DNA from: an uncultured virus (IMG/VR IMGVR_UViG_3300025098_000028)
Taxonomy: Duplodnaviria; Heunggongvirae; Uroviricota; Caudoviricetes
IMG/VR virus record: IMGVR_UViG_3300025098_000028
Direction: 5' to 3' (one strand)
Length of the DNA: 64,000 nt
Every line of letters begins with the position of its first letter. The first letter of the stretch is position 1. Shown piece by piece: positions 9,270 through 43,655 of this stretch. A program made the position numbers and the translations under genes. The notes under the pieces were generated by a model that did no database searches, was not told the origin of the DNA, and was given only the letters and a program-made list of their open reading frames with translations.

Positions 9270-10910
9270 TCACATCGAAGACCTGTTAGGTGTTCTTCTA
9301 TTTATTTTAGAAGATACCATCCTACCTATTTCATCTGCTATTCTTCTCATTTCTGCCTTAGAAGTATCTTTAGCATTAATTGTTATATTATAATTATTAA
9401 CAACACCGCCTTTTGCGTTTCTAGCAATATTTCTACTATCATTATTACTATGAACTCTAGAGCCTCTTGGTAATGAAACTAATTCGGGGCCTTTTTCACC
9501 AACAAGTTGCATTCCTGTTGTTACTGTTCCGCCACTAGAGAAAATTCCTATTTTTTCTCCTAGTTTCTTTAATAGTACACCTATTGCTGTAAGGATAACT
9601 GCCCCTATAACGAATGGGAATCCATAAATAAATGCTAATACTGCGAAACCGATTATTAGTATTCTTTTCAAATTATCTTTTAGATTCCCTTTAAGGTTTA
9701 AGAAATCAACAATAAAGTGCGCTCCTTTTTCTAAAACCTTTAGACCGAATCCAACAACAAAACCAAGTAATCCCATAAATAATGCTCCTGCTATTGAAAA
9801 TGCTACTTGTATTAATCCCCAAGCAAGAGTCCAAAATCCTTCTATTACTCCTAATAAGTCTCCGCTAATCATTGAATCATATATCTGTTTTATGCCTTCA
9901 AATACAAACCCTATTCCTTGCGTTATGGCAGGAAGAACCTTTAATACAAAACTTCCTGCTATTTCTAAGCCTCTCATTATTGGTTTTCTAAGAAGCACGA
10001 TAGCGGCAGTAATCAATACCATGTATAGCATAGCCATAAATAAGAATTTAGCCAAATTAATTAAAACTATTTTTCCAAATTTAAAAACGGTAGTCGCCAC
10101 CATTCCCCACTTAGGGGATTTAAAGAACGCCTTTAATCGTTCCATTCCTGCTTTTCTTCTATCTGTTGCTTCTTTCTTAAGTATGGAAAGTCTATCTTTA
10201 ATATCAATGTTTTTGCTAGCGGCATCAAAGGTTGATTGGTTAAAAAGTCCTCCAAATCTGTCACCGCCACCTGTTCTTCGGGCATTTTGTGATTGAGTTT
10301 GTAGCATTTGCTTTCCTGCAAAATAACCACCACCTTTAGAACTAGCCATAGAAAACACTTTGCCAACGGTACTATCAAAGGAAGGTAGTTTTTTACTTAC
10401 TTTCAAAAAAGTAGTGAGCATACTATCGGCTCCTTCGCCTCCATCTCTAATTCCTCTCATAGCCGCACCCACGGCATCAAAAGAAGTAGCAAGTTGATTT
10501 ATTAATCTAAATGCCCCTCTAGGCATAAAACCATACATTATTCTTCTAGCAGAAGCCGCTTCCATTCCAAATAATCTAACTTCTTCCTTTCCTGATTTCA
10601 TGAATGTAGCGAGATACTCAAAAGTAGTTCCTCCCGCCCTTCTATAATCAGCAAAAGTCTTTGCTCCTAAATTTAATTGGTCATTATTCATTTTAAGAAC
10701 AGTATTTAGAATTTTTGTTCTTTTAGTGATTCCTTCGGTATTTTCTACAACTTCCCTTAATTCTCTTTTATTTTTTTTAGTAATTTTATTAGCCTGTTCC
10801 ATTTGTTGTGTGTATTCTCGTTGTTCTTTATTTACTTCTTGTAAAGCAGTTTTGAAGGCTTTGAGCATTTGCTCATATTCCTCTTGTTTCTGCCTTATTG
10901 TTTTTACCAT
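9270..10910 (-). CDS. Tail tape measure protein
   Basis: N-terminal coiled coil, hydrophobic helices, C-terminal FSSGGTV..LVGEKGPELV..P.GS.V motif; follows the tail chaperone. Confidence 0.85.
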   Translation of the reverse strand: MVKTIRQKQEEYEQMLKAFKTALQEVNKEQREYTQQMEQANKITKKNKRELREVVENTEGITKRTKILNTVLKMNNDQLNLGAKTFADYRRAGGTTFEYLATFMKSGKEEVRLFGMEAASARRIMYGFMPRGAFRLINQLATSFDAVGAAMRGIRDGGEGADSMLTTFLKVSKKLPSFDSTVGKVFSMASSKGGGYFAGKQMLQTQSQNARRTGGGDRFGGLFNQSTFDAASKNIDIKDRLSILKKEATDRRKAGMERLKAFFKSPKWGMVATTVFKFGKIVLINLAKFLFMAMLYMVLITAAIVLLRKPIMRGLEIAGSFVLKVLPAITQGIGFVFEGIKQIYDSMISGDLLGVIEGFWTLAWGLIQVAFSIAGALFMGLLGFVVGFGLKVLEKGAHFIVDFLNLKGNLKDNLKRILIIGFAVLAFIYGFPFVIGAVILTAIGVLLKKLGEKIGIFSSGGTVTTGMQLVGEKGPELVSLPRGSRVHSNNDSRNIARNAKGGVVNNYNITINAKDTSKAEMRRIADEIGRMVSSKINRRTPNRSSM

Positions 10911-11664: not shown

Positions 11665-13836
11665 TCAAATTTTCCAATGAGTAATTACTTCACAAGTCGT
11701 CATAGTTCTAGGTAAAACCGTTGCTTCTACGACGATTGCTCCTTTATCATCGGGTATTGGGAAGTTGTTTGCACTTAGCATATAATCTTCGAACTTAAGA
11801 GTTATTTTCTCATCATTTGATTTTTCAAATACTAAGGTTATTTCTGTTCCCGAACCAGTTTGTTCAGTTCTGTTTAGTAGTTCTTGATAGAGTCTATCAT
11901 CAGTAACATGACCTGTAAATTGTATTTCGTATGTTCTTTCAGCAGGTATTGCTTCTTGTATGGAAGTATTGCCGACTCCCAAGAATCTTCTATCCTGTAG
12001 ATTATTATTCATAGTCAAAGTTAAAGTATTTATCTTTAAGAAGGTATGATTAAATACACTAAACACTCCATCGGAAAAGAAAAATGGCTCTCTAAATTCT
12101 GCAATAGAAGAATAGTTATACAAATTAGTATCATCCTCTATGCCCCTTCTTCCATCATATGCTTCATTAGTTTCTAGTGCGTGAACTGCTCTTGTATTTA
12201 CATCAACGGTCATCTTTACTTCTTCATTCTCATTAGCAGTAAGAGATAGTGTATTTACACGACATCCTCTAGCGATTTTAACAAAGTTCATAGATTCTAA
12301 AGTTTCGGTAGAGTCTGTTCTAAACTTATCTGTTCCCTCTAATTTACTTAGAGTTTGTTCCATAGCAAAAGAAGGAAGATTATCTCCATTTTCCTCCGCT
12401 ATAGTATAAGTTATTCCTTTAGTCATGGTAGTAGTTCCTGTTGGTGGGTCTAATTCTTTTAGCGTAGTATGCGCTTGTAAATGGTCGGGATTTGGTGGAC
12501 AAAGAGTTGTTCCTACAGTTCTATGGAAAAATGGCCCCGTAGAAGAAATATTAGATGTTTTAACATATACTTTATCTTCTGTTCCTATATAGTCGCTACT
12601 AGGAGTTCCTGCTAGAGTTGTAGCACTAATACTTGTCATAGCACCAAAGAAATAATATAACCATGTTCCTTGATTTGCTACTATTCCTAAATTACCACCA
12701 CTAGCAGTTTCAATTCCTTTGTATTGGTAGGTTTTATTTCTTGATGTTCCTAATGATAGATTTACTTGTTTAGTTTCTATTTCTGTAGTTGGGAAAGTTA
12801 CGCTTTCTACTATTCCTAACCATCCATCGGATAGAAGTCTTTTAGCAGAAGTTGTGGTGGTAGCGGCTAAAGCCAATATTCCGTTTGTTCCTCCATTAGA
12901 AGTAATAGTCAAATTACCACTTCCACTAACAGAAGAACCTGCATTTGTTACTGTAACAGCAGTAATAATTCCTCCTTGAACTCCTCCTGCGTTTCCAATT
13001 GTAGTAGCACTAGTTGTAGTTTCTGTAATATGTGTTCCTACATATCCACCAGTATTATTAGTAATAGTTAATTCAGCACCGCTTCTTGTAACAGTTACAT
13101 CTTTTCCTGCTAATGCCGTTAATACGGACTGTGCGATTTCAGCACCAGTAGCACTATCAGCAATAGCGACGGTTACTGAATCATTAGCCGATGCTGATGG
13201 TGCGGAGGCTCCCGCAGTATTAAACAAAACTTGTAATGTAGTAATTCCATTTGTTCCCGAAGCGGAAGCAAGATTAATTGTTAAAAGTCCACTATCATAA
13301 TTTGTTCCGCTTTCAGCAGGAAAAGTAACAGTAGAAATTTCTGCGCTTAAAGTAAGGACTAATTCTGCGCCTGTAGTAGTTAAACCCGAAACACCAGTGA
13401 TTGCGGCATTACCTATAATGGATTCATCAGCCTCAATTTGAGTTCCTCCATTAGTTATGGCCGGTTGAGCCAAAACCGATGTTGCTCCCGTTACTTTCTT
13501 AGCAGGAACAGGTGCGCCATATCCCTTAATTACGAAAAAATCACCATCATCAGGAGTTGCGGCAGGAGTAAAAGTTATTGTGTCTGCTGTATTAGCAGTA
13601 ATTCTATGTGTAGTTTGGAGAGTAGTTCCAGTATATCTTTCTAAAAGACAACCGACATATAAATTATTTACTAGAGAATAATGAGTAGAAAAAGTGGTTG
13701 CGGCTTTAATCGTAGTCAATGAAGAATTATCAAATGCCCCACTTGGATTTTTTGTTGATTCGAAATAAATATCAAATTCCGGTATTTTCGTTATGCTTGC
13801 CCCGCTTCCTAGAAATATATCTGTATTAACTGTCAT
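11665..13836 (-). CDS. Major tail tube protein with a large Thr/Gly/Ala-rich insertion
   Basis: C-terminal half has tail-tube motifs (LPSFAME; GCRVNTLSLTA; LTLTMNNNL..RFLG; R.YEIQF); position between neck and chaperone; no sheath gene seen. Confidence 0.75.
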   Translation of the reverse strand: MTVNTDIFLGSGASITKIPEFDIYFESTKNPSGAFDNSSLTTIKAATTFSTHYSLVNNLYVGCLLERYTGTTLQTTHRITANTADTITFTPAATPDDGDFFVIKGYGAPVPAKKVTGATSVLAQPAITNGGTQIEADESIIGNAAITGVSGLTTTGAELVLTLSAEISTVTFPAESGTNYDSGLLTINLASASGTNGITTLQVLFNTAGASAPSASANDSVTVAIADSATGAEIAQSVLTALAGKDVTVTRSGAELTITNNTGGYVGTHITETTTSATTIGNAGGVQGGIITAVTVTNAGSSVSGSGNLTITSNGGTNGILALAATTTTSAKRLLSDGWLGIVESVTFPTTEIETKQVNLSLGTSRNKTYQYKGIETASGGNLGIVANQGTWLYYFFGAMTSISATTLAGTPSSDYIGTEDKVYVKTSNISSTGPFFHRTVGTTLCPPNPDHLQAHTTLKELDPPTGTTTMTKGITYTIAEENGDNLPSFAMEQTLSKLEGTDKFRTDSTETLESMNFVKIARGCRVNTLSLTANENEEVKMTVDVNTRAVHALETNEAYDGRRGIEDDTNLYNYSSIAEFREPFFFSDGVFSVFNHTFLKINTLTLTMNNNLQDRRFLGVGNTSIQEAIPAERTYEIQFTGHVTDDRLYQELLNRTEQTGSGTEITLVFEKSNDEKITLKFEDYMLSANNFPIPDDKGAIVVEATVLPRTMTTCEVITHWKI

Positions 13837-14573: not shown

Positions 14574-15887
14574 TCAATCCAAGAAATAAACAATATCAGC
14601 CTTGCCCTTTAGAGTGTCCATGGCTTCCTTTCTTAATATATCATATTTTTCTTTAGTAGTAATATTAGCACCCGTTTCAGCAATAAGAACTGATTGGTCA
14701 TCATTTCTTAATATTTCAGCCGCAGATAATTTTGTAGTTGCCTCATGAATAGCGGAAGGAACTCTAGTATCTCCTGCAACATATGTAACAACTACAGAAT
14801 TATCCATATGATAAGGATAATCTTTTAGGAAAAATATTCTACCTTCTTCGTTAATAGTCCAATAGTCTCCTAATCTTCTCAAATCTTCTTTATCGGTGAA
14901 ATCAGTAATGATGCAAACTGAAGGTATGCTTTGTCCTGTTGCCGTTGTAAAAGTTACAATCTCATTACTTAGTCCGTCATTAGTGATTGCCTTGTCTAAA
15001 ACAATAGTTGTAGGATTTGTTATTGAGGTGATTGAAGTATCACTAGGAATATCAGTTCCCACTACAGACATGCCCACCACTAATTTGCTAGAATCTTGAA
15101 CAGTTAAACTAGTAGATGTATTACTTCCCGAACAAGTCTGTTGGGTGCTTACTTTAATTGTGCATTCCGAACCATCATCCCCCGAAAGTAGGGAGGAAAT
15201 GAGAATGCGCTTGCCATTATCTTTATCTTTAGAGGCATAGAAAAAGTCAGAAATAGTTAAATTATTACTAATTAGGCTTTTTGCCGCAGTTGCACCTGTA
15301 AATGTTGAAGTTGATGGGAATTCGCTGTTAATTAAAGCAGTTATGTCATTATTAGTGGTTTTTATTCCAAAAGTATTTGAAAACTCATCATTTCCTAAAT
15401 TGCTTATATTATTTTCAGCGAGTAATGTAAATGACACTCCGCTATTTGGTAATTGTAATATAATAGAATGTATATCTCTAAAATTATCTAATAATTGTAT
15501 TTTAGCCTGTGCAGATGCTATCTCTACATATTGCGTTCCTTGCCATACTAATAAAGAAACTATTTTACGAACTTTCATTTGTTTTAGTTGAATAAATCCA
15601 ACATGGCCACCATAATAAGAACGATGTGGCGGTCTTGAAAATTCAAAGTTGTGGTATTCGTCTTTTGTTACTATTGGTCGAAAAGACCTTTTTATTTTAT
15701 CATCAACTATCCCTTCTATTCTTTTTATTATTGCACCTACTTGTGCTAATGTTGGAAAAGTAGTATTTGTAAATGCAGGAACTTGTAAAATATTAGCCAC
15801 TTCAGTAGCATTAGTGTAAAAACCTCTCCCTTGACTATAATCAGGATTTATTTCCGTAAAATCGCTAGGGGAGAAGGTGGTTCCCAT
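14574..15887 (-). CDS. Head-tail connector / adaptor protein with insertions
   Basis: N-terminal YTNATEVANIL helix and C-terminal GRIFF..VVVTYVAG..VPSAIHEAT motif typical of gp6-like connectors. Confidence 0.7.
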   Translation of the reverse strand: MGTTFSPSDFTEINPDYSQGRGFYTNATEVANILQVPAFTNTTFPTLAQVGAIIKRIEGIVDDKIKRSFRPIVTKDEYHNFEFSRPPHRSYYGGHVGFIQLKQMKVRKIVSLLVWQGTQYVEIASAQAKIQLLDNFRDIHSIILQLPNSGVSFTLLAENNISNLGNDEFSNTFGIKTTNNDITALINSEFPSTSTFTGATAAKSLISNNLTISDFFYASKDKDNGKRILISSLLSGDDGSECTIKVSTQQTCSGSNTSTSLTVQDSSKLVVGMSVVGTDIPSDTSITSITNPTTIVLDKAITNDGLSNEIVTFTTATGQSIPSVCIITDFTDKEDLRRLGDYWTINEEGRIFFLKDYPYHMDNSVVVTYVAGDTRVPSAIHEATTKLSAAEILRNDDQSVLIAETGANITTKEKYDILRKEAMDTLKGKADIVYFLD

Positions 15888-17944
15888 TATGACTCCACCT
15901 CTTCTGTTACATCTCCGAATTTTCTTTCTATGGTTCTAATTTTAGTTTTCAAATCATTTACTCGGCTAGCCATTGGTCTATTAGCACTTTCTCTACCTGC
16001 GGGTTTAAGATTGAATTTGCCTTCTTGTCTTACATAGAAATCTAAAGCAAGCAAGAAAGGTATCTTTTTACTAAGAAACCCCTCTCCTGTAATCATTTCG
16101 CTTAATTTTAAATCACCAATAGCGTAAGTCTTTTTTCCTACAAAATTTACAGAAGATTTAACATTTTCAATTCCTGCACCAGTTTGCATAGTTAGATTGG
16201 GAGCATATTTTTCTTTATCATCTAATGATAGTTTAGCATATTCATCAAAAGATATAAACTGTTCAGCAGTTTTTCTAGTTCTATTAAAGAGTTCTTTAAA
16301 TTCTTCTAATTCCTCAATGTCTAATAACCTCATAACTTCGTCGGCTTTTTCTTCCATATCTTGAATATTTTGTAAAACCTTCTCATATGTAGCATTGTCA
16401 ATAGTTTCGTCTTTTACTAATTGAATATCTCCTATCTTTACTGATTTACCAGTATATTTCCAAGAGAGTTTTTTCTTATCCTTTGTTTTTAGATTTTCTT
16501 TTAATACGAATGCTTTTTTTCCTAATTCATCCAATTTTTCCTTTCTTGCTTTTGCATCAATTTCGTTTAAATTTGTAAGTTTTACTTTACCTTTATCATC
16601 AAGATTATCTCTAGAACCAATAGTAAAGCCCTCTAATTCTGCATCATCTTGCACTAGACTTTCTTTAAATTGGTCAAATGTTGCCTCGGCTCTTTCACTT
16701 TTACTAAACTTGCCGCAAATAATAGGAACCATTATATCAGTAGCAGATTCTAAATAAGGTCTAAATATTTCTTGTATTTGTGCGTTGTTCTCCTCTATTA
16801 ATTTTGGAATATCTGTATCGTTTGTAAATTCAACAAATGCTTGTTTTAGTCTATATTGTGAACTAGAAGGGGCTTTAAAACCGTATAGTCCTTTTTTCCC
16901 GTCTACTTCTAATTCAAAATATTCTGCTTTACTTTCTATTGTAGCATTATATTGTTCGTGAGTAGGTTGTCCTTTTGCTTTCTCCCTAAAACCCAATGTT
17001 CCTTCTCTTACTATTTCATAGTTTACCATAGTTTTAGGTTCACTACTTCCTTCTCTATAAGTGGGATTAGGTATTCTAGTTTTCTTATATTCATACCATT
17101 CTATTGGTCTTTCTGCGGCTTGTTCAGTTACCTTCTTAATTACCTTATCACTAAATCTAACTTCGGTATTAAATACATCACTACCTATTTTGAATGTCTG
17201 TGTTTTACTTCTTTCCGGTATTGGGTTTTGTCCAGTTATCTCTCTTATATGATTTGTTTTAAGTTCTTCTAAGTCAGTAGATTTTATGTTCCCGTAGGTC
17301 ATTTTAAAGTGATAGTTTTTTCCGTCCTGCTTAACATCCCCTTCGGGCATAAAAGAAAAAACTCCTGTTCCGCTACCTGTTTCTATATTTTCTTTTTCCC
17401 TTAAAATCATATCTTCTTGAATGGGAACATCGTTGTTTTTTTGAGTCCTTATGAAAGTTCTAAAATCAAAAGGAGGTAAATTCAATTTTTGGGTTCCTCT
17501 TTCAGCGAACTTTAATGCGCCTACACCGGAGAGTTTTTCTCTAACATCTCCGTCTTTGACCTCTTTTAGTTTTAAATTTTCTGCGTATCTAACATTGAAA
17601 GTATTTTCTGCACTACCTTCTTTTCCAGTTTTCATTCTACTAAATCTAGTCCAACCGTAACCGTCATTGTTAATATAAGAAATAAGGGGTTCTTCTTTAA
17701 AAAAATCTTTAATTATTTTAACGAACTCTTTTTCTACTAATTCTTTTCTTTCTTCCTTTTCATCTTCGCTTAGTTGGGTATCGGCCTCTATAGCCTTGAT
17801 AGTTTTATTATATTCTCTAAGTAAGTCTTTTGTTTTTTTAGGTCTGCCTTTAGCATCCATATGTCCTTTTAATGTATTTATAATATCATTTCTACCCATA
17901 TCTTTAGATATATCAATATCTGACCCCTTCCAACTTATAATCAT
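15887..17944 (-). CDS. Hypothetical Lys/Glu-rich protein, 685 aa
   Basis: Long ORF in the late operon; no motif recognised. Confidence 0.6.
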   Translation of the reverse strand: MIISWKGSDIDISKDMGRNDIINTLKGHMDAKGRPKKTKDLLREYNKTIKAIEADTQLSEDEKEERKELVEKEFVKIIKDFFKEEPLISYINNDGYGWTRFSRMKTGKEGSAENTFNVRYAENLKLKEVKDGDVREKLSGVGALKFAERGTQKLNLPPFDFRTFIRTQKNNDVPIQEDMILREKENIETGSGTGVFSFMPEGDVKQDGKNYHFKMTYGNIKSTDLEELKTNHIREITGQNPIPERSKTQTFKIGSDVFNTEVRFSDKVIKKVTEQAAERPIEWYEYKKTRIPNPTYREGSSEPKTMVNYEIVREGTLGFREKAKGQPTHEQYNATIESKAEYFELEVDGKKGLYGFKAPSSSQYRLKQAFVEFTNDTDIPKLIEENNAQIQEIFRPYLESATDIMVPIICGKFSKSERAEATFDQFKESLVQDDAELEGFTIGSRDNLDDKGKVKLTNLNEIDAKARKEKLDELGKKAFVLKENLKTKDKKKLSWKYTGKSVKIGDIQLVKDETIDNATYEKVLQNIQDMEEKADEVMRLLDIEELEEFKELFNRTRKTAEQFISFDEYAKLSLDDKEKYAPNLTMQTGAGIENVKSSVNFVGKKTYAIGDLKLSEMITGEGFLSKKIPFLLALDFYVRQEGKFNLKPAGRESANRPMASRVNDLKTKIRTIERKFGDVTEEVES

Positions 17945-17954
17945 GGAAAACGCC

Positions 17955-18605
17955 TCACATTAACCATTTAGCCCAAGCCGCACCTTTTTGTATTGCTGAG
18001 CCTAATCCTAAACCGCTTTGTGGGGGTTCGTAAGACATTTGACCTTGAGCATCTACCCAATATGGCCTACCATATCCATCTGTTCCGCTAGGAGGAATAG
18101 GATAACCAGTACCATTATTCATGGCACTATTCATTTGATTAAATTGTTGAGTATTTCCAGTTACATTTGCTAATGCCATTCCTGCTGATGGTTGTTGTCC
18201 GATTCCACCACCAAATCCTTGTGATTCTAAATATTGCTGTTTTGCCATTTTTCTTTGATTAATTACTTCGCTGTTGATAGCAGAACTTAATAATTTTTGA
18301 ATATCTAAATCTATATTTTCTTGAGTAATTCTTTCGTATTCTCTAAGACAATCGGGGTTCACCGTTATTTTAGTTCCATCAGTGGAAAAAGATAGTTTAG
18401 ATAACATTTGTGAAACTACTCTTTCTGTTACATCTTCCATTAATTTTTCAAGAGCCGTTAAGAAATGCTCACCATGATATTGAAAGAACTCTTCAACATG
18501 GTTATCTTGTAAAGATAGTAAGTTATTTACATTCTTGAATTGTTGGTCGCTTTGCTGTTGTACAGAAGCCAACACCGTTCCATTACTTGTTCCTAGTATT
18601 CCCAT
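17955..18605 (-). CDS. Hypothetical protein with Gln/Gly-rich tail and amphipathic C-terminus
   Basis: Coupled ORF ending GLGLGSAIQKGAAWAKWLM. Confidence 0.6.
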   Translation of the reverse strand: MGILGTSNGTVLASVQQQSDQQFKNVNNLLSLQDNHVEEFFQYHGEHFLTALEKLMEDVTERVVSQMLSKLSFSTDGTKITVNPDCLREYERITQENIDLDIQKLLSSAINSEVINQRKMAKQQYLESQGFGGGIGQQPSAGMALANVTGNTQQFNQMNSAMNNGTGYPIPPSGTDGYGRPYWVDAQGQMSYEPPQSGLGLGSAIQKGAAWAKWLM

Positions 18606-18607
18606 AT

Positions 18608-19267
18608 TTATTCCTCCGTTTCTTCTTCCGGAACCTTAATTTGATTGTTTAACAGTAAATGGTTTATTCTATCTGTCATGATATTGACTTCCGTTACCAA
18701 TCTAATTACTTCCTCCGTAGCGGTCTTGTTATCTGCTAGTGCGGGTGGTTTTATAAACCATCCTGCTGAAGTTAAGGATGCTACATCGTTTTTATTTAAA
18801 GTAGTTAATGGCCCACTTTTTAGAATTTTAGGCATTCTAGGTTTAAATGCCGCAAAGTCTAATCCGTGTTTATCTGCAAGTATTTGCTGTTGTAACATTT
18901 CTAACTGCATATACATAGAAGCGTGTTTTGGACAATAAGTTCCCATTAGAGGTCTACCCTTAGTTACTTTATCTAGAGGTATTGGTGGTCGCATGTAATC
19001 TCCTTGTTGCCAAATATGATGAAAACCGCACACTACACATCTATCCTTTAAGTTAAACTTTTTACCGTATTTTATTCCTAAGAATTTTTTAGGTTCAGAT
19101 TTTAATACTGCTGTTAATTCTGCTAATTGTTTTTTAGGTTTAATTGCCACAAACTTGTATTCAGTTATAGCCCCACTTGCTCTTGCCTGTTGTAGCGGAG
19201 TCCTATTAAAATTACCAAAAGCAGGGTTTGGTGTGTTCTGTCCTATTATATTTGGTTGGTTATACAT
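18608..19267 (-). CDS. Hypothetical protein with putative Zn site
   Basis: CVVCGFHH and YCPKH motifs. Confidence 0.6.
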   Translation of the reverse strand: MYNQPNIIGQNTPNPAFGNFNRTPLQQARASGAITEYKFVAIKPKKQLAELTAVLKSEPKKFLGIKYGKKFNLKDRCVVCGFHHIWQQGDYMRPPIPLDKVTKGRPLMGTYCPKHASMYMQLEMLQQQILADKHGLDFAAFKPRMPKILKSGPLTTLNKNDVASLTSAGWFIKPPALADNKTATEEVIRLVTEVNIMTDRINHLLLNNQIKVPEEETEE

Positions 19268-19277
19268 CTTTAATTCC

Positions 19278-19946
19278 TCAATAATCTTTTATCATTGTTG
19301 TTACACCCCTATATACCATTTCGGGGTCGGATTTCGCTGAAACAATATATTTGAAACAGGGTATTCCCTTCTCATTTAACTGCCTCATTCCATACTTAAA
19401 AGGTTCAAATATTTCATGGTTGTCCATACTAGCCCCTTCTGTTAGTGGGTATTTTTCCGACCATATATCATATTTGTTAGCCCAAATCCCCACAGCCATA
19501 GGATAATCTATTTCTTTTTTCTTTCTTCCTGTAGGCCAAGTATTTGCTACAATAGTGTCTACTAGAAATTTCCATGCTAATTGATGGTCTAAATTAGATG
19601 AAGAGTCTAAGTGTCTATGGTCAATCATAAAAATAATATATTTTACTTTTCTTTTTTGCATATCCTTTACCCATTCTTTCCAGTAAATAGCCTCTCCGCC
19701 TATATCTGCACTTTTTATTGTATGGGAGTTTCCATCAATTTTTATATTTTTTCTGCTCGCTCTATGCAAGCCAACAGTTCTTTTATTCACTTGTGGAACT
19801 TCTCCTCTTGTTCTAAGTTGTTTGCTAAGGGTTGTTTTACCAACCATTGTAGAACCATACACACCAAAGTTAATTGCATGAACTTTTTTGTAAAAGCCTA
19901 TTAATGCTTCACCAACTAATATAGCAAAGCCCGTCATTATAGACAT
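19278..19946 (-). CDS. Small Ras/Arf-like P-loop GTPase
   Basis: G1 GSTMVGKTT, G2 RTVG, G3 DIGGE, G4 NKYD, G5 VSAK; hydrophobic/amphipathic N-terminal helix. Confidence 0.85.
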   Translation of the reverse strand: MSIMTGFAILVGEALIGFYKKVHAINFGVYGSTMVGKTTLSKQLRTRGEVPQVNKRTVGLHRASRKNIKIDGNSHTIKSADIGGEAIYWKEWVKDMQKRKVKYIIFMIDHRHLDSSSNLDHQLAWKFLVDTIVANTWPTGRKKKEIDYPMAVGIWANKYDIWSEKYPLTEGASMDNHEIFEPFKYGMRQLNEKGIPCFKYIVSAKSDPEMVYRGVTTMIKDY

Positions 19947-20165
19947 TTAATGCCCCCAAATATCCTTAGCCCTCTCTATAATCCAACCCATTATATTAAT
20001 GTCAAAGACTCCCATAATATTACCAATTAAAAACATAGCCAAAGTAGAGAATCCTCCCCAAAACCAAGCCTTCATTTTCAAAAAGAAAATATCAGCAGAA
20101 TGCGCTCTAGATTGATTATAAGCATAATCGGAGTCGGAAAAACCCATCAAGTCGCCAAAGACCAT
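19947..20165 (-). CDS. Small membrane protein
   Basis: Hydrophobic segment AWFWGGFSTLAMFLIGNIMGVF; GAGGTGG SD. Confidence 0.65.
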   Translation of the reverse strand: MVFGDLMGFSDSDYAYNQSRAHSADIFFLKMKAWFWGGFSTLAMFLIGNIMGVFDINIMGWIIERAKDIWGH

Positions 20166-20174
20166 TTAACCACC

Positions 20175-20558
20175 TCATTGGAGTGCGGCTAAAAATTCAT
20201 TACCGACGGTATTTTCTTCAGCCGGTTCAGTATTGCTGTAAAAGTTAGTATTGTATTGTCTAGCACTTTCACGCATCTTTTGTCTTTGCTGTTCGTCTCT
20301 AGCCTTTCTTTCCCAATATGCGGATATCTTTCTATCTAGTAGCCACATTTCTATCTTGTCATTTAGTGCTAAATCGAACAATGCTTTCATTACCATTATT
20401 GCTCCTATTGTTCCAAGCCCAAATAGAACTGAATGTGCTAATGGCCCATATGGGAAACCTGTTCCGAATTGAGCATAAGCAAATACATTTGCCCCACTTA
20501 ATGTTCCTACGAACAATATAGTCATAACTAGTCTAGTATCTTGATTTAAAACAGCCAT
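20175..20558 (-). CDS. Two-TM membrane protein (holin-like topology)
   Basis: Start reassigned to MAVLNQD (GAGGT SD); two hydrophobic helices followed by a charged coiled tail. Confidence 0.6.
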   Translation of the reverse strand: MAVLNQDTRLVMTILFVGTLSGANVFAYAQFGTGFPYGPLAHSVLFGLGTIGAIMVMKALFDLALNDKIEMWLLDRKISAYWERKARDEQQRQKMRESARQYNTNFYSNTEPAEENTVGNEFLAALQ

Positions 20559-20568
20559 TTGTAAAACC

Positions 20569-20844
20569 TCAAGCGAATTCAATAGAACATGCAACTTGGC
20601 CGGAAGTTTCTTCAAAGAAAAGCCCTGTGCTACATATTACTCCATGCATATCAAACTCTTTAGTTTCATTGGCAGATAGAACTATTCTAGCAACTTCTTT
20701 GCCACTATTACTAGTTCCATCAAATACCTTTATTGTAGCCGCACTACCACTAACTTCGCAAACATGAATTGAAACCAATTTACATTGACCAGTAAAAACC
20801 AATTTACTTGCTGTTAATACACCGCTACTTCTGCATGAAGCCAT
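20569..20844 (-). CDS. Small beta-rich protein, possibly structural
   Basis: GGGAG SD; beta-sandwich-like pattern; downstream of the capsid genes. Confidence 0.55.
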   Translation of the reverse strand: MASCRSSGVLTASKLVFTGQCKLVSIHVCEVSGSAATIKVFDGTSNSGKEVARIVLSANETKEFDMHGVICSTGLFFEETSGQVACSIEFA

Positions 20845-20898
20845 ACTATCTACTCCCTTGAGACTAACTACAATACCAATACCATTTAAGATTATTGT

Positions 20899-21234
20899 CT
20901 AATCTTCTTTGGTTTTAGTTTCTTTTTGCTTTTTTGCCGCAGGTTTCCTTCCCCTCTTAACAGGTTTAGGAGGCAATAAAAGAGATTCTAGTTCATCATG
21001 AGTGGTTATTGCGGAACCCAATACTCTATTGATAACATCAAATCTTTTTGGGTCTATTTCCGAAAGTGCCTTCCTATCGTCTTCTGTAAAGAGAATCTCT
21101 AGATTAGTGTCTCCTTTCAGCGTTATTGCTGTAAAAGGTTCTACATTATCTAGAGAATCCCTTTTTGTCAAAAGAACCCCACGGACAATTACTGATGGCT
21201 TATTTGCTATAGTTGCCATTTTAATTATTGCCAC
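20899..21234 (-). CDS. Hypothetical protein with basic C-terminal tail
   Basis: GAGGTG SD; PKPVKRGRKPAAKK tail. Confidence 0.55.
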   Translation of the reverse strand: MAIIKMATIANKPSVIVRGVLLTKRDSLDNVEPFTAITLKGDTNLEILFTEDDRKALSEIDPKRFDVINRVLGSAITTHDELESLLLPPKPVKRGRKPAAKKQKETKTKED

Positions 21235-21243
21235 TAGAACACC

Positions 21244-21853: not shown

Positions 21854-23191
21854 TCACAGAAGGTTTGTAATCTTTCCTTGACCCTTGAAGTATGAACAAG
21901 CCATTTCACCAATTGTTCGGTATAGAGCCTTGTTTCCAAGGTTGCCAACACCGAATGGGTTTCCGTTACTAATACCATCTTCAAAGTATTGAGTTGGCTT
22001 CATCACTGATAGCCATAGATGGTCAGTATCTAGAACAAGCATGTCACCGATTAGAGAACTGTTTAGACCAGTAGAAGGCATAGCCGCTACAGGAATCAAT
22101 GGGATATCGTAGTATGTAGAAACTCTAAATCCTACTTCTGCACCCTTAACGCCTCTAACACCATTTACAGTTGGAACAATCTCTTTTCTGTCCATAAATC
22201 TCTCTTGTGCTTGTAGCAAATCACTTAGAGTTTGTAGAGTATCATATCCAGTTAGGATAACCTTTGGAGAACCTCCGGCTACTCTAATATCTCTTAGTAG
22301 AGAATTTAGAACTGTTAGAGTTAGTTGTCTTGCTTCACCGGAAGTATAACCTGCACCAAATGAAACTTGAGCATCTAGGAATGAATCACTTGCTCTTGAC
22401 TTTCCATATAGTTTGTTAATGTCATCAGTTCGTGTAGCAACTACACTTGAAGCCTCCATTTCTGTCAATTCAGCATTACTAGAAACAATTTTCAATAGAG
22501 AAGTATAGTTTCTTTCCATTACATCTGCTGAACCGGAGTTGGCAGTAACATCTTGATAATGCTCAAGTGGCATTACTAGCATAGCGTTTTGAACTTCCGA
22601 ATGGTGCTTACCCATGTCTTCTCTCAATTGCGCTCTAATGTCACCAATTCCGTCATCAATTGCCGCCATTTCCATAGCAAGTTCACTGAACTCAAATTGA
22701 TGAGCAATAATTTTAGGGCTAGTATTTAGCAAATCATATTCAGGAGCAATTGACATTAAACCATCTGCTTGACTATCTAGACTTGCATTTTCCGGAACAC
22801 CACCAATTCGGTCTGCTCTTAGAGTATCTGCACCATATAGTGAATCTGCTAGTGTAGCATTTCCGGTAATTGATAGGAAGTTTCCGCTTCCACCACCGGC
22901 TCTCTTTGCCAAAACTCTCCAACCACTTGATGTATATGGCCTCTTTGAAATAACTGAAAGTGCATTACATTCCCTGTTTAGCATTGACCAAACTTTTTGC
23001 CCATACATAATATTGTATAGATTTGCATTTATTCCGCTTGGTGCGGAAGTTGCATGTCCGTGGTTATATGCGGTATGAATACCACTAATGCCACCTTGAG
23101 CCTTTAATAGTTCATTTCCGATTGAACCCATTGTGTTTAGTCCGTATGTGCTTGCTTCTAAATCTGCTATTGTGTTAATATATCCTGTCAT
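21854..23191 (-). CDS. Major capsid protein (HK97 fold)
   Basis: Follows protease/scaffold; HK97-like pattern (PKIIAHQFEFSELA, spine helix LREDMGKHH, PKVILTG, YYDIPLIP, LDTDHLW). Confidence 0.9.
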   Translation of the reverse strand: MTGYINTIADLEASTYGLNTMGSIGNELLKAQGGISGIHTAYNHGHATSAPSGINANLYNIMYGQKVWSMLNRECNALSVISKRPYTSSGWRVLAKRAGGGSGNFLSITGNATLADSLYGADTLRADRIGGVPENASLDSQADGLMSIAPEYDLLNTSPKIIAHQFEFSELAMEMAAIDDGIGDIRAQLREDMGKHHSEVQNAMLVMPLEHYQDVTANSGSADVMERNYTSLLKIVSSNAELTEMEASSVVATRTDDINKLYGKSRASDSFLDAQVSFGAGYTSGEARQLTLTVLNSLLRDIRVAGGSPKVILTGYDTLQTLSDLLQAQERFMDRKEIVPTVNGVRGVKGAEVGFRVSTYYDIPLIPVAAMPSTGLNSSLIGDMLVLDTDHLWLSVMKPTQYFEDGISNGNPFGVGNLGNKALYRTIGEMACSYFKGQGKITNLL

Positions 23192-23202: not shown

Positions 23203-24444
23203 TCAAATGAGTCCTCCGGCCATTTTATGAATGTCCGACCAATCCATTTCAGCCAGTTCTTCCATACTTGGGAGTTTAATTTGTGCTTCTTCTTGTGCCT
23301 TTAGTATTGTTTCTTTTTCTGTTGTCAAAGACTTTCTTAGGGAAACAAATTCATCTTTTAGGGAAGCAATTTCTGCTTGAGCATCATAGTTTGCCTTTTC
23401 TATTACTGTTTCTCTATTTGCTGTTTCTCTAGCAAATCTTTGTGCAAAAGACTTTTCTAGATTGCTGTAAGCCAACTTTTCTAGTTGTTCTTGTCGGAAA
23501 GCCTCATATGCTTTCTCAATGTTTCCAACAGTCAAATCAAGTGTTTCTAGTTCAGTATTGCTAAATGCTTTAACAACTGGTAAATCACTTGCTTTTGGCT
23601 TTCCATTGTCAATAACAATTCTATCTGCGGGTTCGCCAATTTCTACACCTGCTCCATCAAGAGTGGATAAAAGGGCTTTTCTTTCTTCCATGAGTTTCTC
23701 ATAGTCTCCCTTTTCTTGGTCTAGAGGCATGGCAGATTCTTTATCATCGTCTTCCATTTTCTCGCCCATCATTTTTTCGTTCATCTTTTCATCCGTCTCA
23801 TCCATCTTTTCACCATCTGCCATTTCTTCCTTACGGAGAGAATTGACTTCTGCCATCAAAGCGTCTAATTCTTCCAATGCTTTCTCTATTCGTGTCATAC
23901 TTTTCACCTTTGTTTTTGTTTTTGTTTTTTTGTCTTGTTTTAAAATATCAAATCGTGCTTCTGGATTTATTCCCTTTTCACAAATTGTTACCTCATGTAA
24001 TTCTAATTTACTTATTTCGTTGTAGTCGCCTAGTTCTTTGTGACTCTTTTTCACTTTTTCTAAAGCCTGTCCTCCAATACTAAATGACCTCAACGAACCT
24101 TTCCTTATGCCTCTATTAATTTCTTTGGCTTTTTCTATATCATCTCTTAACTTAATTACTACAAAGAACCCAACATCGTCCACTTCTGTTTTCCATAATC
24201 TCCCTGTTGTATCTCTATATGATTCTACTACTTCTCCCACTTGAACATTTGAATGATTTGTCATTACATTTCTAAACTTGGGATTCTCCATATATTTTTT
24301 TACTGCCTCATTAAGTGCTTTGAGTGTGATTAAATCATTTTGCTTATCAACGATTTCTATGCTTGCATATCCTCCAATCATTAAATCGTTGCTTTTGAGA
24401 ATCCTAAAGTCTGTTGTTTTGTTTGCCAATACCGCAGACGACAT
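23203..24444 (-). CDS. HK97-family prohead protease fused to scaffolding domain
   Basis: IGGYAS..VDKQND, NHSN..VG (catalytic His), SFSIGG (catalytic Ser), LHEVTICEKGINPEA; acidic coiled C-terminal half. Start placed at MSSAVL. Confidence 0.9.
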   Translation of the reverse strand: MSSAVLANKTTDFRILKSNDLMIGGYASIEIVDKQNDLITLKALNEAVKKYMENPKFRNVMTNHSNVQVGEVVESYRDTTGRLWKTEVDDVGFFVVIKLRDDIEKAKEINRGIRKGSLRSFSIGGQALEKVKKSHKELGDYNEISKLELHEVTICEKGINPEARFDILKQDKKTKTKTKVKSMTRIEKALEELDALMAEVNSLRKEEMADGEKMDETDEKMNEKMMGEKMEDDDKESAMPLDQEKGDYEKLMEERKALLSTLDGAGVEIGEPADRIVIDNGKPKASDLPVVKAFSNTELETLDLTVGNIEKAYEAFRQEQLEKLAYSNLEKSFAQRFARETANRETVIEKANYDAQAEIASLKDEFVSLRKSLTTEKETILKAQEEAQIKLPSMEELAEMDWSDIHKMAGGLI

Positions 24445-24473
24445 TCCTCTCAAAAACTAATTAATAGAACGAC

Positions 24474-24496: not shown

Positions 24497-27439
24497 TTAT
24501 TCAGGCAAGGGTGTTTTAGCAAATTTATCTTCATAAATATTCCAAATACCTTCATCACCTTCAGTATCAGCAGGTTCTTGTTTATATCCAGTCCAAGCCA
24601 ACCACATCTTTTTCTCTTGAACAGGTAAATAACGAATATGTAGTTTAGTTTCGAATTTGTTTCCTTTTAAGAAATATTCATGATATCCGTCTCTTTGGAC
24701 TCCTAACTCAATATCTCCCGAATCAATTACCTTTCCTTGTTCTAAACTTTTAGAAACTTCAGCAGGATATTTTCCTGCCGCACCGAACAAATCAAACAAC
24801 TCTTCTTCATTATCTAGTTGAATAGTCCAAAACATAGACTCATTTTCTACTAATATTCCAAAAGAAACATTACCATCTTCTCTATCGTATATTTTGAATT
24901 TACCTGTTCTATATTCTTTAGGAGTTTTATAGGCTTTTAACATAGCATACTTGTCTGTAAAATCTGAACCGAAACCCATTTTACATCTATCATATTCTTC
25001 TAACATTTCTCTTGCCTTTGGTATAGATTCAATTTGCCTTACTAATTCTTCACATTCAGTATTGGCTACTGTTATTTCTGCTAACTGCCTTAACTCTTCT
25101 ACAGTTGTAAGAGTGACTCCATTTAGTCGCTCATAATCATCAATAACCTGTCTAGCGGAAGGGTCATCCCTAAGATTTGTTCCTTTTAATGAATCTAAAC
25201 CTTCATTGACTCCTTGTAGATATTTTTGTTTTAAATCATTACAACATTTATCTTCATCAGTAGAATCATAAGACATAGATACCATAGGTGTTTCCTTTTG
25301 TCTTTCAATAGTTATTGGAACATTACGCATTGGTTTTCCACCTTTATTTGCTAATTCCATTAATGCCCCCATGACAGATTTAGCGATAGTATCTTCCTGT
25401 AGAACTTTGCTAGGGTCTACTAGGAATTTATTTCCCTCTTTTTCTAATCCGTCTCTTTGGGGAACAAAATCAGCAAGGTTCGTTTCTTTTCCTTGTAAAG
25501 TATCTTCATAAATAGCAGGATGTTTTTGATTTAGAAACTCATGAGTTTCTTTTATGGTTCTAGGTTTTGGTTTTAGATAATGATATAAAATTAATGCCAA
25601 ATCATTATTTTTACTTTTCATAACTTCTTCTGCTTGATTCTTCCACATATCTAAATCAGCCAAAGCATTCTTAGACATCAAATTATTCTCTTCAAAACCA
25701 TATAATACAAAGCCACTAGTGTCGTATTTTGCTATAATAGTTGTCTCACCGTGAATATAGTCTGTAACTTTAATTCCCTTTTCTAAAGCGACAACATCAT
25801 AGTTAAGTGATTTCTTAGTATCTTGAGAAAGTATCTCTAGAGTAATTGGTTTATCCGGATATTCTACTTCGGGAACTTCTATTACTTTGGCAGAAAACAA
25901 ACTATAACTTTCTCCCTTTTTCTTGACTTCATCTACCTTTACTCTAATGATATCGCCAACATCAACATTAATTTTAGTATTGAGTGCTTTACCTACATTC
26001 ATATAATTTTGACCTTTTATTTCTACTAATCCTTCGATATCCTGTAAAACCGGCCCCACTCCTACAGAATATGAAAATAAATTACTTTTGGTTTTATTTT
26101 TATCTAAAACTATAACATCCAAGTCTACAAAGTTTTTCCATTTTATCCATTTAGGATTCTTTTTAGTTCCAATATAATATGTTGAAGTAGCGTCTTTTAT
26201 TACAACTCCTTCTGCTGTTGGTATTTCCATCATTTCTTTAGAATATTTTTCTAAGTCTTCTAAGTTATCTGCCTGTCTAGTATCTTTCTTAGAAGGATAA
26301 GCAATCGCTTCGCCACTTTTAGCAGAATAATTATTGAAAAGAATGGTCATTCTATTAGATAATTCTTCTTCGGCCAAAGTCTGTGATTCGTGCCTCATAA
26401 TATCAAAAACATGACATCTTAATTTAGCATCTTTATATTTATTTTTGAATACATGGGCGATAGTATCTGCCCTGTGTAATGCTTCATTACCATCAAATAA
26501 TATTAGTTCCCCATCTAGAATACAATCCCCATATTCTTTCTTATTTAATTCTTGGACTTGAGCAGAACATTTATCTGTGATATTTTTCTCATTGTAAGAA
26601 TAAATAGTAACCTTGCCATCTAACTTATGCAATTGTATTCTCATACCATCGTATTTTTCTTGAACAAACCAATCGCCACTAAATCCCTTTAGTTGCTCAA
26701 TGTCTTCTATTTCAAAAATCCTATACATTGGTTTGTTAGGTACAATAAAGTGTGAGAGGGATTTTTCTTCTTTTTCTCCGTCTTCGTTCTTTTCAATCTC
26801 TACTAACTCTTCCCAATCTTCTTCATCATTCCTAGAAAAGAAAATCGTTTCTAAAATATCCATAGCGGCCTTTACCTTTCCTTCGACTTCCCTAGAATCC
26901 TTGCCGTCTCCATAGTGTTCGATAATATACAGCCCTATGTCGTCTGCCTCTAGGTCAAGTCCATCAAGACCCTCCGTTATTGTGTCACTTTGCATGTCTT
27001 TTATTGCTAATACATCCTTTGAAAGTGCTTTATTATCGTTTCTTAGTGCATAATGCACAAATTTAACCATAGTCTCCGGATTACTCAATAATTCTTCAAG
27101 AACATTACCTTTGAACATATCAGCAAATGGGTCAATTACAATTTTAGAAGTATATCTTAAAAGTTTAATATCTTCAAAGAGTTTCTGTGCCTTTAGACTT
27201 TCAGGATTCTTTGTGTCTTTATCTTTTAAATCTTCTTCTTCAATAAATCTCTTAAGTTCTTTTCCTACTGCATTTAATTTTTCATATGATTCTATAATCA
27301 TATCTACAGCATTTTGCCATCTACTTCTGTATTCTTTTGGGTCTTCTTTTGCTGATAAATAGGCGACTCTAGATTTTTCAAACAATCTAAGTATTTCTAC
27401 CGAAGGTTGTTTGTCCTTCTCGATAGAGTCTAGTTTCAA
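24497..27439 (-). CDS. lig: ATP-dependent DNA ligase, multidomain (980 aa)
   Basis: Motif I QEKYDGMR, III ILDGEL, IIIa VFDIM, IV EGVVIKD, V WIKWK, then an OB-fold; long N- and C-terminal extensions. Confidence 0.9.
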   Translation of the reverse strand: MKLDSIEKDKQPSVEILRLFEKSRVAYLSAKEDPKEYRSRWQNAVDMIIESYEKLNAVGKELKRFIEEEDLKDKDTKNPESLKAQKLFEDIKLLRYTSKIVIDPFADMFKGNVLEELLSNPETMVKFVHYALRNDNKALSKDVLAIKDMQSDTITEGLDGLDLEADDIGLYIIEHYGDGKDSREVEGKVKAAMDILETIFFSRNDEEDWEELVEIEKNEDGEKEEKSLSHFIVPNKPMYRIFEIEDIEQLKGFSGDWFVQEKYDGMRIQLHKLDGKVTIYSYNEKNITDKCSAQVQELNKKEYGDCILDGELILFDGNEALHRADTIAHVFKNKYKDAKLRCHVFDIMRHESQTLAEEELSNRMTILFNNYSAKSGEAIAYPSKKDTRQADNLEDLEKYSKEMMEIPTAEGVVIKDATSTYYIGTKKNPKWIKWKNFVDLDVIVLDKNKTKSNLFSYSVGVGPVLQDIEGLVEIKGQNYMNVGKALNTKINVDVGDIIRVKVDEVKKKGESYSLFSAKVIEVPEVEYPDKPITLEILSQDTKKSLNYDVVALEKGIKVTDYIHGETTIIAKYDTSGFVLYGFEENNLMSKNALADLDMWKNQAEEVMKSKNNDLALILYHYLKPKPRTIKETHEFLNQKHPAIYEDTLQGKETNLADFVPQRDGLEKEGNKFLVDPSKVLQEDTIAKSVMGALMELANKGGKPMRNVPITIERQKETPMVSMSYDSTDEDKCCNDLKQKYLQGVNEGLDSLKGTNLRDDPSARQVIDDYERLNGVTLTTVEELRQLAEITVANTECEELVRQIESIPKAREMLEEYDRCKMGFGSDFTDKYAMLKAYKTPKEYRTGKFKIYDREDGNVSFGILVENESMFWTIQLDNEEELFDLFGAAGKYPAEVSKSLEQGKVIDSGDIELGVQRDGYHEYFLKGNKFETKLHIRYLPVQEKKMWLAWTGYKQEPADTEGDEGIWNIYEDKFAKTPLPE

Positions 27440-35212: not shown

Positions 35213-35581
35213 TCAACTACCTTTACGCCACTTTTTGTTTTTCTTTTCTTTGGTTTTCTTAGGACTCCATTTTTCTTTATTAGCCCAATAAGCCGCAGAC
35301 ATTTTCCCACGCTTGATATTTTCAGCATGACGAGATTTGAAGGCTTCTCTTTGCCCTTTAGTTTGATTTGTTTTGACACCTTTCTGTCCGAATTTCATGT
35401 ATTTTGCTTTCTTACTTTTGGCATCCCAAGCCATTACATGATGAGACTTGCTTTTATCATCTCTTAGTGCCTGTGCGTCATTCAATCCGGAAAGACCTTT
35501 TTTTCTTGCTCTTTCCAATGCCCGTTTTCTAGGACTTTTGGGTTTCTTTTTCTTTTTGAGAATATCCATCCAATCACTCAT
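35213..35581 (-). CDS. Tagged basic protein, DUF5754-like (MSDWMDILK)
   Basis: KFGQKG..REAFKSRH..SAAYWA motif recalled from small basic viral proteins; family name from memory. Confidence 0.55.
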   Translation of the reverse strand: MSDWMDILKKKKKPKSPRKRALERARKKGLSGLNDAQALRDDKSKSHHVMAWDAKSKKAKYMKFGQKGVKTNQTKGQREAFKSRHAENIKRGKMSAAYWANKEKWSPKKTKEKKNKKWRKGS

Positions 35582-43415: not shown

Positions 43416-43655
43416 TCACCTGTATAAAATATATCCTGCGGCTCTCGCTAACAGCCTTAAAGTGTCATATTCATCACCATCGGGAAAATCTAATTCTTCC
43501 CATTGGTTAAATGTAAATCGAATTGCATCATAATATTTATTTTGTTTATTATTTTCTAGCCATTCACGAATCGTATTAGCATGTTCTTGTTTAACACTAA
43601 TATAATTACCCTCTTTATCTTTAGGGCGGTGTTTAATTATATTTAGCCAACTCAT
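43416..43655 (-). CDS. Tagged small protein (MSWLNIIK)
   Basis: ATGA overlap with the upstream stop. Confidence 0.6.
   Translation of the reverse strand: MSWLNIIKHRPKDKEGNYISVKQEHANTIREWLENNKQNKYYDAIRFTFNQWEELDFPDGDEYDTLRLLARAAGYILYR

Follow-up and report, generated by a model that had tools for sequence, protein, structure and literature searches.

Positions 17955–20558 of a 64,000-nucleotide (nt) stretch from an uncultured tailed virus (IMG/VR IMGVR_UViG_3300025098_000028; the whole stretch is referred to as the window) hold five coupled genes on the minus strand, encoding in transcription order two small membrane proteins (tm127 and tm72), a small GTPase, a protein with a Cys/His motif (the Cys/His protein) and a Gly/Gln-rich protein (c216). 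Its gene content identifies the window as a magrovirus, one of the tailed viruses whose assigned hosts are Marine Group II (Poseidoniales) archaea, and the cassette is a virus-specific module built around an N-terminally anchored GTPase that is core, single-copy and strongly constrained. The gaps between the genes are 9, 0, 10 and 2 nt, with a GAGG-type motif upstream of each gene and the stop codon of tm72 abutting the start codon of the GTPase gene. Three of the five proteins have hydrophobic anchors, with two segments in tm127 (Kyte–Doolittle (KD) 1.67 and 1.85, followed by a Lys/Arg/Glu-rich tail), one in tm72 (KD up to 1.67) and one at the N-terminus of the GTPase (residues 1–19; KD 1.62). 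An initial annotation, made from the sequence of the locus, had described a complete small GTPase with an N-terminal hydrophobic helix, preceded by two small membrane proteins and tightly coupled to its neighbors, and these elements are all borne out. The start of tm127 is placed at the ATG at 20558, with a GAGGTG Shine-Dalgarno motif just upstream; a longer TTG-initiated open reading frame (ORF) reaching 20615, which would overlap the preceding gene by 47 nt, was rejected. At several junctions within window positions 17944–21243, the TGA stop codon is shared with the TGAGG ribosome-binding motif that serves the following gene.

Based on its motifs and a fold model, the central protein is a functional-looking small GTPase with a real G domain. 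All five motifs are intact (G1, GSTMVGKT; G2, T57; G3, DIGG; G4, NKYD; G5, SAK) and, amongst 141 family sequences (60 close, 64 distant, two from a third group, and 15 representatives), G1 (GxxxxGK[ST]) is intact in every sequence and G4 in 140, with D81, G84, N157, K158, and D160 invariant in the family alignment. The residue after DxxG (Glu85) is a glutamate in 60 of 60 close members and not the catalytic glutamine of the Ras superfamily; elsewhere in the family the position is occupied by Q, E, D, H, A, G, or F, with 23 of the 64 distant-group sequences not placed by the motif pattern. An AlphaFold2 model built from a 21-row alignment (predicted local distance difference test (pLDDT), 85; predicted template modeling score (pTM), 0.82) has a helix at residues 3–22 preceding a canonical G domain. 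The N-terminal segment has a mean hydrophobicity of 0.45–0.74 and a hydrophobic moment of 0.05–0.29 in all 21 aligned members (0.71 and 0.18, respectively, for helix 3–22 of the window GTPase), and this combination of high hydrophobicity and low moment is more in keeping with an SR-beta-type anchor that is inserted than with an amphipathic helix lying on the surface. Serine invariably occupies residue 2.

Searching the GTPase model against the PDB with Foldseek returned at least 500 matches at E ≤ 0.001, with Rab8a, Rab33, Rab1, G-alpha-i, and Arl13B/Arl3 in the top ranks (E ~1e-9). VIA re-alignment, which covered the top 1000 Foldseek PDB chains and in which differences of <1 Z unit are ties, placed Arf/Arl structures in all of its top 15 rows (Z 18.2–19.0; root-mean-square deviation (rmsd), 2.3–2.5 Å over ~160 residues), including Arf6 (2a5f, 19.0), Arl1 (18.7), Arl6 (18.6), Arl3 (18.5), and Arf1 (18.4), while Rab reached up to 18.2, within the tie range of Arf/Arl, and GerdArfR1 reached 17.7. 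The modeled fold thus appears closest to the Arf family, tied with Rab. The window GTPase did not reach the Arf model in a Pfam search at E ≤ 0.01, and its matches to MMR_HSR1 (E 0.0011; 19.5 bits, cut-off 21.9) and Roc (E 0.0026) are sub-threshold; NCBIfam returned only the generic small_GTP domain, under its cut-off, and the family profile searched against PDB sequences found KRas at only E 0.08. Amongst 16 divergent family members, Arf is the top-scoring Pfam family (6/16; best E 1.9e-15) and G-alpha and SRPRB each match three (SRPRB best E 1.8e-5), with the NCBIfam model for archaeal EngB-type proteins (PRK04213) matching one of 16 members, while the window protein has no match to it. The motif that follows G3 resembles that of Arf, Sar, and SR-beta, with the window protein reading DIGGEAIYWKEWVKDM...YIIFMIDHRH. 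The GTPase is referred to here as Arf-like and is not filed as a member of the Arf family, due to the glutamate after DxxG, Ser2, the low-moment N-terminal segment, and its remoteness in sequence.

The family is small and, as far as searched, appears to be viral-only, without a close cellular relative. A profile search of 1.84 billion representative proteins produced 75 matches at E ≤ 0.001, of which 41 pass E ≤ 1e-10 and 10 pass E ≤ 1e-30; many are fragmentary. Had the family been captured recently from a cellular Arf or Rab gene, far more matches would be expected. Ten divergent cluster representatives occur mostly on short contigs (1–19 kb; one of 59 kb). A scan of 185,579 species genomes with a single peptide pattern, which is weak evidence for the absence of cellular relatives, found only two loci (L162 and L163; 12.2 and 28.9 kb), both in one bacterial metagenome-assembled genome labeled Maricaulis sp. 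Since L163 carries magrovirus capsid, protease, and ligase genes, the placement of these loci is most likely a binning error. A tblastn search of a phage GenBank collection with the window GTPase and P0133 gave no match, searches of viral contigs did not recover the distant relatives P0172, P0160, and P0132, neither the P0186/P0188 alignment nor P0188 alone was found in metagenome contigs, and no further relative of P0172 was found. No fused forms were found amongst the longer proteins, though this is weak evidence. Another distant relative, P0139, carries an insertion with a cluster of Cys residues (...YCYKCKEVGGGCGCE...) after G4 and before the next helix.

The five genes are conserved together. 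In a close set of 81 loci (80 viral contigs and a second copy of one record), the GTPase is present in all 81, tm127 and tm72 in 80 each, the Cys/His protein in 77, and c216 in 74, with gene order and strand constant throughout, and each missing gene corresponds to a locus that ends beside it (L080; L017, L027, L033, and L077; L025, L030, and L035). The reciprocal search, using a profile of the Cys/His protein across 80 loci, found the GTPase upstream in 79, with no misses amongst the 76 loci with at least 700 nt of room, and tm127 and tm72 in 75 of 75 loci with room. An extra gene (50–650 nt) lies between the GTPase and Cys/His genes in 18 of 79 loci and, in other relatives, between tm72 and the GTPase; these inserted genes differ from each other, yet all start with MW-x-[NK]-[IL]-[LI]-K, and their occurrence indicates that strict translational coupling is common and not obligatory.

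Synteny across related viruses, which the initial annotation had named as a check, extends beyond the close set, as the same architecture is found in two divergent groups. The second group (240 viral stretches, of which 80 loci were kept) has a GTPase ~30% identical to that of the window and displays the same build in the 69–72 loci where a single GTPase ORF was found, with median sizes of 187 amino acids (aa) for a protein with one transmembrane (TM) helix (tmA), 82 aa for another with one TM helix (tmB), 240 aa for the GTPase, ~295 aa for the fourth protein, and 212 aa for a Gln/Gly-rich fifth protein, along with an additional 81-aa protein with two TM helices. Profile comparison with hhalign links the window and second groups for the GTPase (99.9%, E 3.5e-37) and the Cys/His protein (93.1%, E 3.2e-7), with homology of gene 5 not confirmed (2.2%). 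In the third group (four loci; G+C content 0.45–0.52), the five genes are again present; gene 5 of L167 matches c216 of the window (E 5.5e-8), tmA matches tmA of the second group (E 2.8e-12 and 7e-15), and tmB, in L164 only, matches tmB of the second group (E 7e-4). Homology thus connects all five positions by way of one or more intermediates, the exception being tmA and tmB between the window group and the others.

The location of the block differs between the three groups. In the window group, it follows the capsid genes, while in the second group ~9 kb separate it from the terminase gene downstream and ~22 kb from the capsid gene, and in the third group (L164 and L167) it directly follows a chaperonin gene. 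In the complete genome G024 (108,650 bp), the GTPase (~9.3–10.1 kb), terminase (18.8–20.2 kb), and capsid (32.0–33.1 kb) genes all lie on one strand. In the window, the gene at 43652–44317 is upstream of the terminase gene; in nine of nine second-group loci that were opened, a homologue of it comes after the block. Three divergent groups with three genome positions indicate that the block has been relocated intact, against a backbone that these viruses share. This is the best reason to think that the five genes act jointly, and it also means that the block need not lie beside the head genes. The placement of the cassette inside a morphogenesis block, as first proposed, is thus true of the window lineage and does not carry over to the distant group, where the block is outside of the head-to-tail run; the position is lineage-specific. 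In distant-group loci L086–L108, an AT-rich gap in which the motif ...ATAATAATA...GGGTGAAT... recurs, possibly as an archaeal promoter, lies 60–150 nt before the first cassette gene. The gap is present in most of the 22 distant-group loci printed and in five a predicted upstream ORF overlaps the start of tmA.

To assess whether the cassette belongs to the core of these viruses, records were chosen by terminase and not by GTPase (23 of 80 loci are at least 75 kb, of which 22 were searched). The GTPase is present in 22 of 22 of these long records, including 18 of 18 with at least 90% completeness, and is single-copy in each record, with the exception of two copies in a 184,733-bp record with two terminase genes. 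This record (G008; L195/L212), in which the terminases are 89% and 85% identical to that of the window, is probably two related genomes joined in assembly. The ratio of nonsynonymous to synonymous substitutions (dN/dS), determined against five relatives with dS near saturation in the more distant pairs, is low for all of the cassette genes (Table 1), and identity across 80 loci is 82–100% for the GTPase vs. 63–100% for the capsid protein; the GTPase is under stronger constraint than the capsid protein. Ordered conservation and dN/dS values of 0.05–0.19 mark the cassette genes as more than chance ORFs. Between the window and L003, neighboring genes differ strongly in dS, from 0.13 (capsid gene and tm127) to 0.66 (GTPase) and 0.74 (c216), and this unevenness suggests recombination breakpoints within the late operon.

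Less can be assigned to the partner proteins by similarity. At E ≤ 1, neither Pfam nor PHROGs provides a noteworthy family for tm127, tm72, c216, or their counterparts, beyond a weak match of c216 to a PHROG family of 'virion structural protein' (E 0.014). tm127 and tm72 fit holins in size, in number of TM helices, and, for tm127, in the charged C-terminal tail, features that are generic. The Cys/His protein family retains C77, G81, W86, P95, V101, G104-R105, and G109-T-Y-C-P-x-H115 (the GTYCPxH motif) across groups, with G104-R105 invariant in the family. The Zn site ascribed to this protein in the initial annotation holds insofar as the Cys and His residues are present, but the second Cys of the CxxC is replaced in the distant group, such that a fixed four-ligand zinc site is not established and zinc binding would be only a putative property; the fold model (pLDDT 43) is unusable. 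A Pfam search of 18 Cys/His members at E ≤ 1 found no family common to more than five and none that was OapC or ArfGAP. The best ESM Atlas scores for the Cys/His protein (0.79) and c216 (0.81) are below a meaningful level. c216 consists of a helical N-terminal half, a middle rich in Gly, Gln, Pro, and Asn (76 residues, of which 15 are G and 9 are Q), and a conserved C-terminus rich in Trp (IQKGAAWAKWLM). The amphipathic WAKWLM helix proposed for this C-terminus survives as letters only, as the hydrophobic moment is not above chance (reached by 445 of 2000 shuffles), and the distant groups do not retain the WAKWLM residues.

The assignment of the window to the magroviruses is based on the relatives of the GTPase, which include 'Poseidoniales virus YSH_150918 gp088' (74% identity), and on a DNA ligase within the structural module (Table 1). 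Five listed clusters of GTPase relatives carry the JGI label 'GTPase SAR1 family protein'. It had been proposed at the outset that the host lacks peptidoglycan and that the window has no recognizable lysis enzyme, and both stand. Poseidoniales are generally known to lack murein, and no lysis enzyme family was found in the 58 window ORFs searched with Pfam, 28 of which were also searched with PHROGs. In the magrovirus description, a ligase within the structural module is a hallmark of the group and Poseidoniales archaea are the hosts as assigned (PMC5434244).

Table 1 Features of the window in transcription order (except for the 199-aa neighbor, listed without coordinates), with assignments from Pfam and PHROGs scans
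Feature	Positions	Strand	dN/dS	Remarks
Tag-bearing ORFs, further examples	47741-48052, 48056-49243, 49524-50136	-		
Tag-bearing ORFs, examples	35574-36149, 41043-43409, 44319-45629, 46500-47627	-		
Large terminase	33306-34736	-		
Portal	30115-31749	-		
980-aa protein	24497-27439	-		ATP-dependent DNA ligase domain
Prohead protease	23203-24453	-	0.12-0.18	
Major capsid protein	21854-23191	-	0.16-0.21	Followed by three small ORFs, then the five cassette genes
tm127	20175-20558	-	0.045-0.096	127 aa; two predicted TM helices (residues ~10-28 and 43-61); conserved, highly charged C-terminal tail
tm72	19947-20165	-	0.06-0.14	72 aa; 34-residue N-terminal part, then one TM helix
Small GTPase	19278-19946	-	0.05-0.10	222 aa; G1-G5 intact; Glu85 at the catalytic Gln position; N-terminal hydrophobic helix
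Cys/His protein	18608-19267	-	0.06-0.12	219 aa; C77, C80, H83/H84, C112, H115
c216	17955-18605	-	0.12-0.19	216 aa; Gly/Gln-rich; ends ...AAWAKWLM
685-aa neighbor	15887-17944	-	0.25-0.33	Directly downstream of the cassette; followed by a 437-aa protein
199-aa neighbor			0.44-0.48	
Tail-tube-like protein	11665-13836	-		
Tape-measure-like protein	9270-10910	-		Followed by a 2066-aa protein

Every gene from position 1 to ~54 kb of the window is on the minus strand. The 685-aa gene directly downstream of the cassette is hypervariable, detectable in 23 of 81 loci at 23–81% identity, as would be expected if it encoded a virion protein that faces the host or diversifies for other reasons. Approximately 22 otherwise unrelated minus-strand ORFs between 34747 and 50136 share an N-terminal peptide, M[ST]W-x-x-[IV]-[LI]-K, which is absent from all five cassette proteins and is carried as well by the variable genes inserted next to the GTPase gene in relatives; the C-terminus of the protease/scaffold protein (...LAEMDWSDIHKMAGGLI) resembles this tag. 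One of the tagged ORFs (35574–36149) encodes a PAP2-family lipid phosphatase (E 1.4e-12) and an ORF at 51343–51651 on the same strand encodes a Kyanoviridae Gp96-like protein (E 2.7e-19).

The function that best accommodates these features, to which we assign a probability of roughly 40%, is that of a membrane-acting egress module. Late in infection, the GTPase would sit on the cytoplasmic face of the host membrane with tm127 and tm72, and its GTP/GDP state would set when these two proteins act on the membrane, by disturbing or remodeling it, so that virions are released; in a host that has no murein wall, the cassette may thereby time lysis or egress. As the GTPase lacks the usual catalytic glutamine, hydrolysis probably needs a partner, and the Cys/His protein, with its invariant Arg105, would be the best candidate for a regulator resembling a GTPase-activating protein (GAP) or for an effector of the GTPase, with the Gly/Gln-rich c216 a possible scaffold. 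Egress is ranked likeliest due to the lack of any other recognizable lysis function in the window, the holin-like build of tm127, and the precedent of Haloferax volcanii, where a small GTPase and a Zn-ribbon partner control membrane budding (PMC10927574). The fully specified form of this proposal, in which a self-encoded, anchored Arf-like GTPase times or drives membrane disruption by the two TM proteins with the Cys/His protein as its GAP, is more tentative and on the unlikely side.

Several observations weigh against egress. No holin family was matched by tm127, tm72, or their counterparts (Pfam and PHROGs, E ≤ 1), and neither zinc binding nor a GAP role for the Cys/His protein has a supporting fold or family match (18 members, Pfam). 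Homology of the TM proteins between the window and second groups is undetectable (hhalign 3.2% and 1.3%), so that the shared build there rests on size, position, and TM content. Constraint stronger than that on the capsid protein would fit any essential role and not egress in particular. Other small TM ORFs are present in the window (e.g., 61256–61576 and 54857–55207), and the cassette is thus not the sole possible lysis candidate. Five metatranscriptome runs hold small shares of the region; in the four compared, only contigs of relatives (90–99% alike) are represented, which cover the capsid and protease genes well and are patchy on the cassette (parts of tm127 and c216, and one bin at the 3′ end of the GTPase gene). 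No conclusion on expression is drawn, since contigs of this kind carry no information on level or timing and might stem from DNA carry-over. Lastly, the block in the window sits between the head and neck/tail genes, the usual place of assembly factors.

This last point is the basis for the alternative that the anchored GTPase and its partners constitute an assembly platform or checkpoint, for procapsid docking or for head completion and tail joining, and do not function in release. In the window and its 80 close relatives the cassette is translationally coupled to the capsid-side and neck/tail genes that flank it and is as core and constrained as structural genes are, and the weak PHROG match of c216 is to a virion structural protein. 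A morphogenesis role would not account for the distant-group block, far from both terminase and capsid genes, or for the third-group block after a chaperonin gene, which together remove the requirement for head-gene adjacency, and the AT-rich gap before most distant-group blocks hints at a transcription unit of its own; with no match to an assembly-factor family, this explanation is considered unlikely. The position between head and tail genes would also suit hydrophobic proteins that are packaged in the virion and form a conduit for DNA in the membrane of the next host, assisted by the GTPase, and in some phages (e.g., P22 and T7) genes for ejection or internal proteins with hydrophobic segments do lie between the head and tail genes. 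However, that position differs in the other groups, the five cassette proteins lack the N-terminal tag that heads ~22 other window ORFs, and a nucleotide switch would have no supply of GTP within a virion, making a role in entry highly improbable.

An anchored switch protein with small TM partners would also fit systems for superinfection exclusion or host takeover, in which the cassette rewires the host membrane, blocks competitors, or hijacks or mimics a vesicle GTPase system of the ArvA type. The pairing of the GTPase with the Cys/His protein parallels that of ArvA with ArvC, and ArvA demonstrates control of membrane budding by a small GTPase in the Euryarchaeota (PMC10927574). Conversely, the ten cassette proteins searched match no PADLOC defense model, there is no Pfam match to OapB or OapC at E ≤ 1, and exclusion genes are usually accessory and variable, while the cassette is core and slow-evolving and, in the window, is coupled to late and not to early genes. 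Takeover or exclusion is accordingly a poor fit, though less so than entry, and there is only a slim chance that the function lies outside of egress and these three alternatives.

The exit of tailed archaeal viruses is an open question, with the routes reviewed in PMC10791045 comprising pyramids, budding, and an undefined form of membrane disruption, and the cassette provides a concrete, clonable candidate from an uncultured virus group. Magroviruses are amongst the most abundant archaeal viruses in the sea and their hosts are abundant ocean archaea. A term search of the magrovirus texts (PMC5434244, PMC10160649, PMC11706807, PMC8651126, and PMC10768690), the supplements and gene tables of which may annotate the gene, found no mention of a GTPase. 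Literature searches for 'magrovirus' and 'GTPase' found nothing, those for a Poseidoniales GTPase virus found only works on Asgard archaea and eukaryogenesis, and 'Arf-like' was not found in the top-ranked literature on archaeal viruses or Caudoviricetes. The cassette also shows that Arf-like small GTPases occur as core genes of prokaryotic tailed viruses, and K37, T57, and E85 in the GTPase and R105 in the Cys/His protein offer handles for mutation. If the egress proposal is true, the cassette would represent the first known case, in any bacterial or archaeal virus, of egress controlled by a nucleotide switch and a virus-borne parallel to membrane remodeling of the Arf/Sar and ArvA types; if the GTPase acts on membranes, a viral lineage would enter the question of how membrane remodeling by GTPases originated prior to eukaryotes.

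Amongst known systems, the Ras-, Rab-, and Ran-like GTPases of giant eukaryotic viruses share the fold (mimivirus Rab, PDB 5XC5; 5xc5 Z 18.2), and the best 50 BFVD matches to the GTPase model (best E 3.6e-10) are all from giant viruses of eukaryotes, with none from bacterial or archaeal viruses. The giant-virus proteins differ in being recent captures of host Rab or Ras genes, whereas the cassette family is viral and has no close cellular relative. Holin/antiholin cassettes likewise group small membrane proteins with late genes, and tm127 has the build of class II holins (two TM helices and a charged C-terminal tail), though the locus has neither a holin family match (E ≤ 1) nor an endolysin; we know of no GTPase in any lysis cassette.

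The Arf family, to which Arl8 and Sar1 also belong, is similar in the fold of the G domain, as seen in the top VIA matches (Arf6, Arl1/3/6, and Arf1, along with the Asgard GerdArfR1, PDB 8OUM), in the DxGG form of G3, the Trp-containing switch II, and the I-F-x-[IV]-D strand, and in the presence of a helix before the G domain. In Arf proteins, this helix is amphipathic and myristoylated at Gly2, and a Trp precedes DxGG; the window GTPase has Ser2 in place of the myristoylation glycine, no Trp before DxGG, Glu in place of Gln after DxGG, and an N-terminal helix of low moment that is more anchor than amphipathic. SR-beta, an Arf-like GTPase with an N-terminal hydrophobic membrane anchor, is closer in this last respect, and Pfam SRPRB matches some of the divergent viral members; in contrast, it is eukaryotic and works in protein targeting, the window GTPase has no SRPRB match, and no SR-alpha-like partner is recognized.

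The nearest parallel in an archaeal setting is the vesiculation operon ArvA-ArvB-ArvC (OapABC) of Haloferax volcanii, in which, according to PMC10927574, the small GTPase ArvA drives vesicle budding and a Zn-ribbon-type protein is proposed as a GAP-like negative regulator. ArvA is without small TM partners, OapB (PF09846) has no match at E ≤ 1 in c216 or its counterparts and is absent from the nearest viral record (G001), with a control search recovering it in Haloferax volcanii, and the ArvC-type Zn-ribbon (DUF2072/OapC) is not amongst the Pfam matches of the 18 Cys/His members at E ≤ 1. The two systems nonetheless appear alike in combining a small GTPase, carrying an N-terminal membrane-seeking helix, with a Zn-ribbon-type operon partner at an archaeal membrane (PMC10927574).

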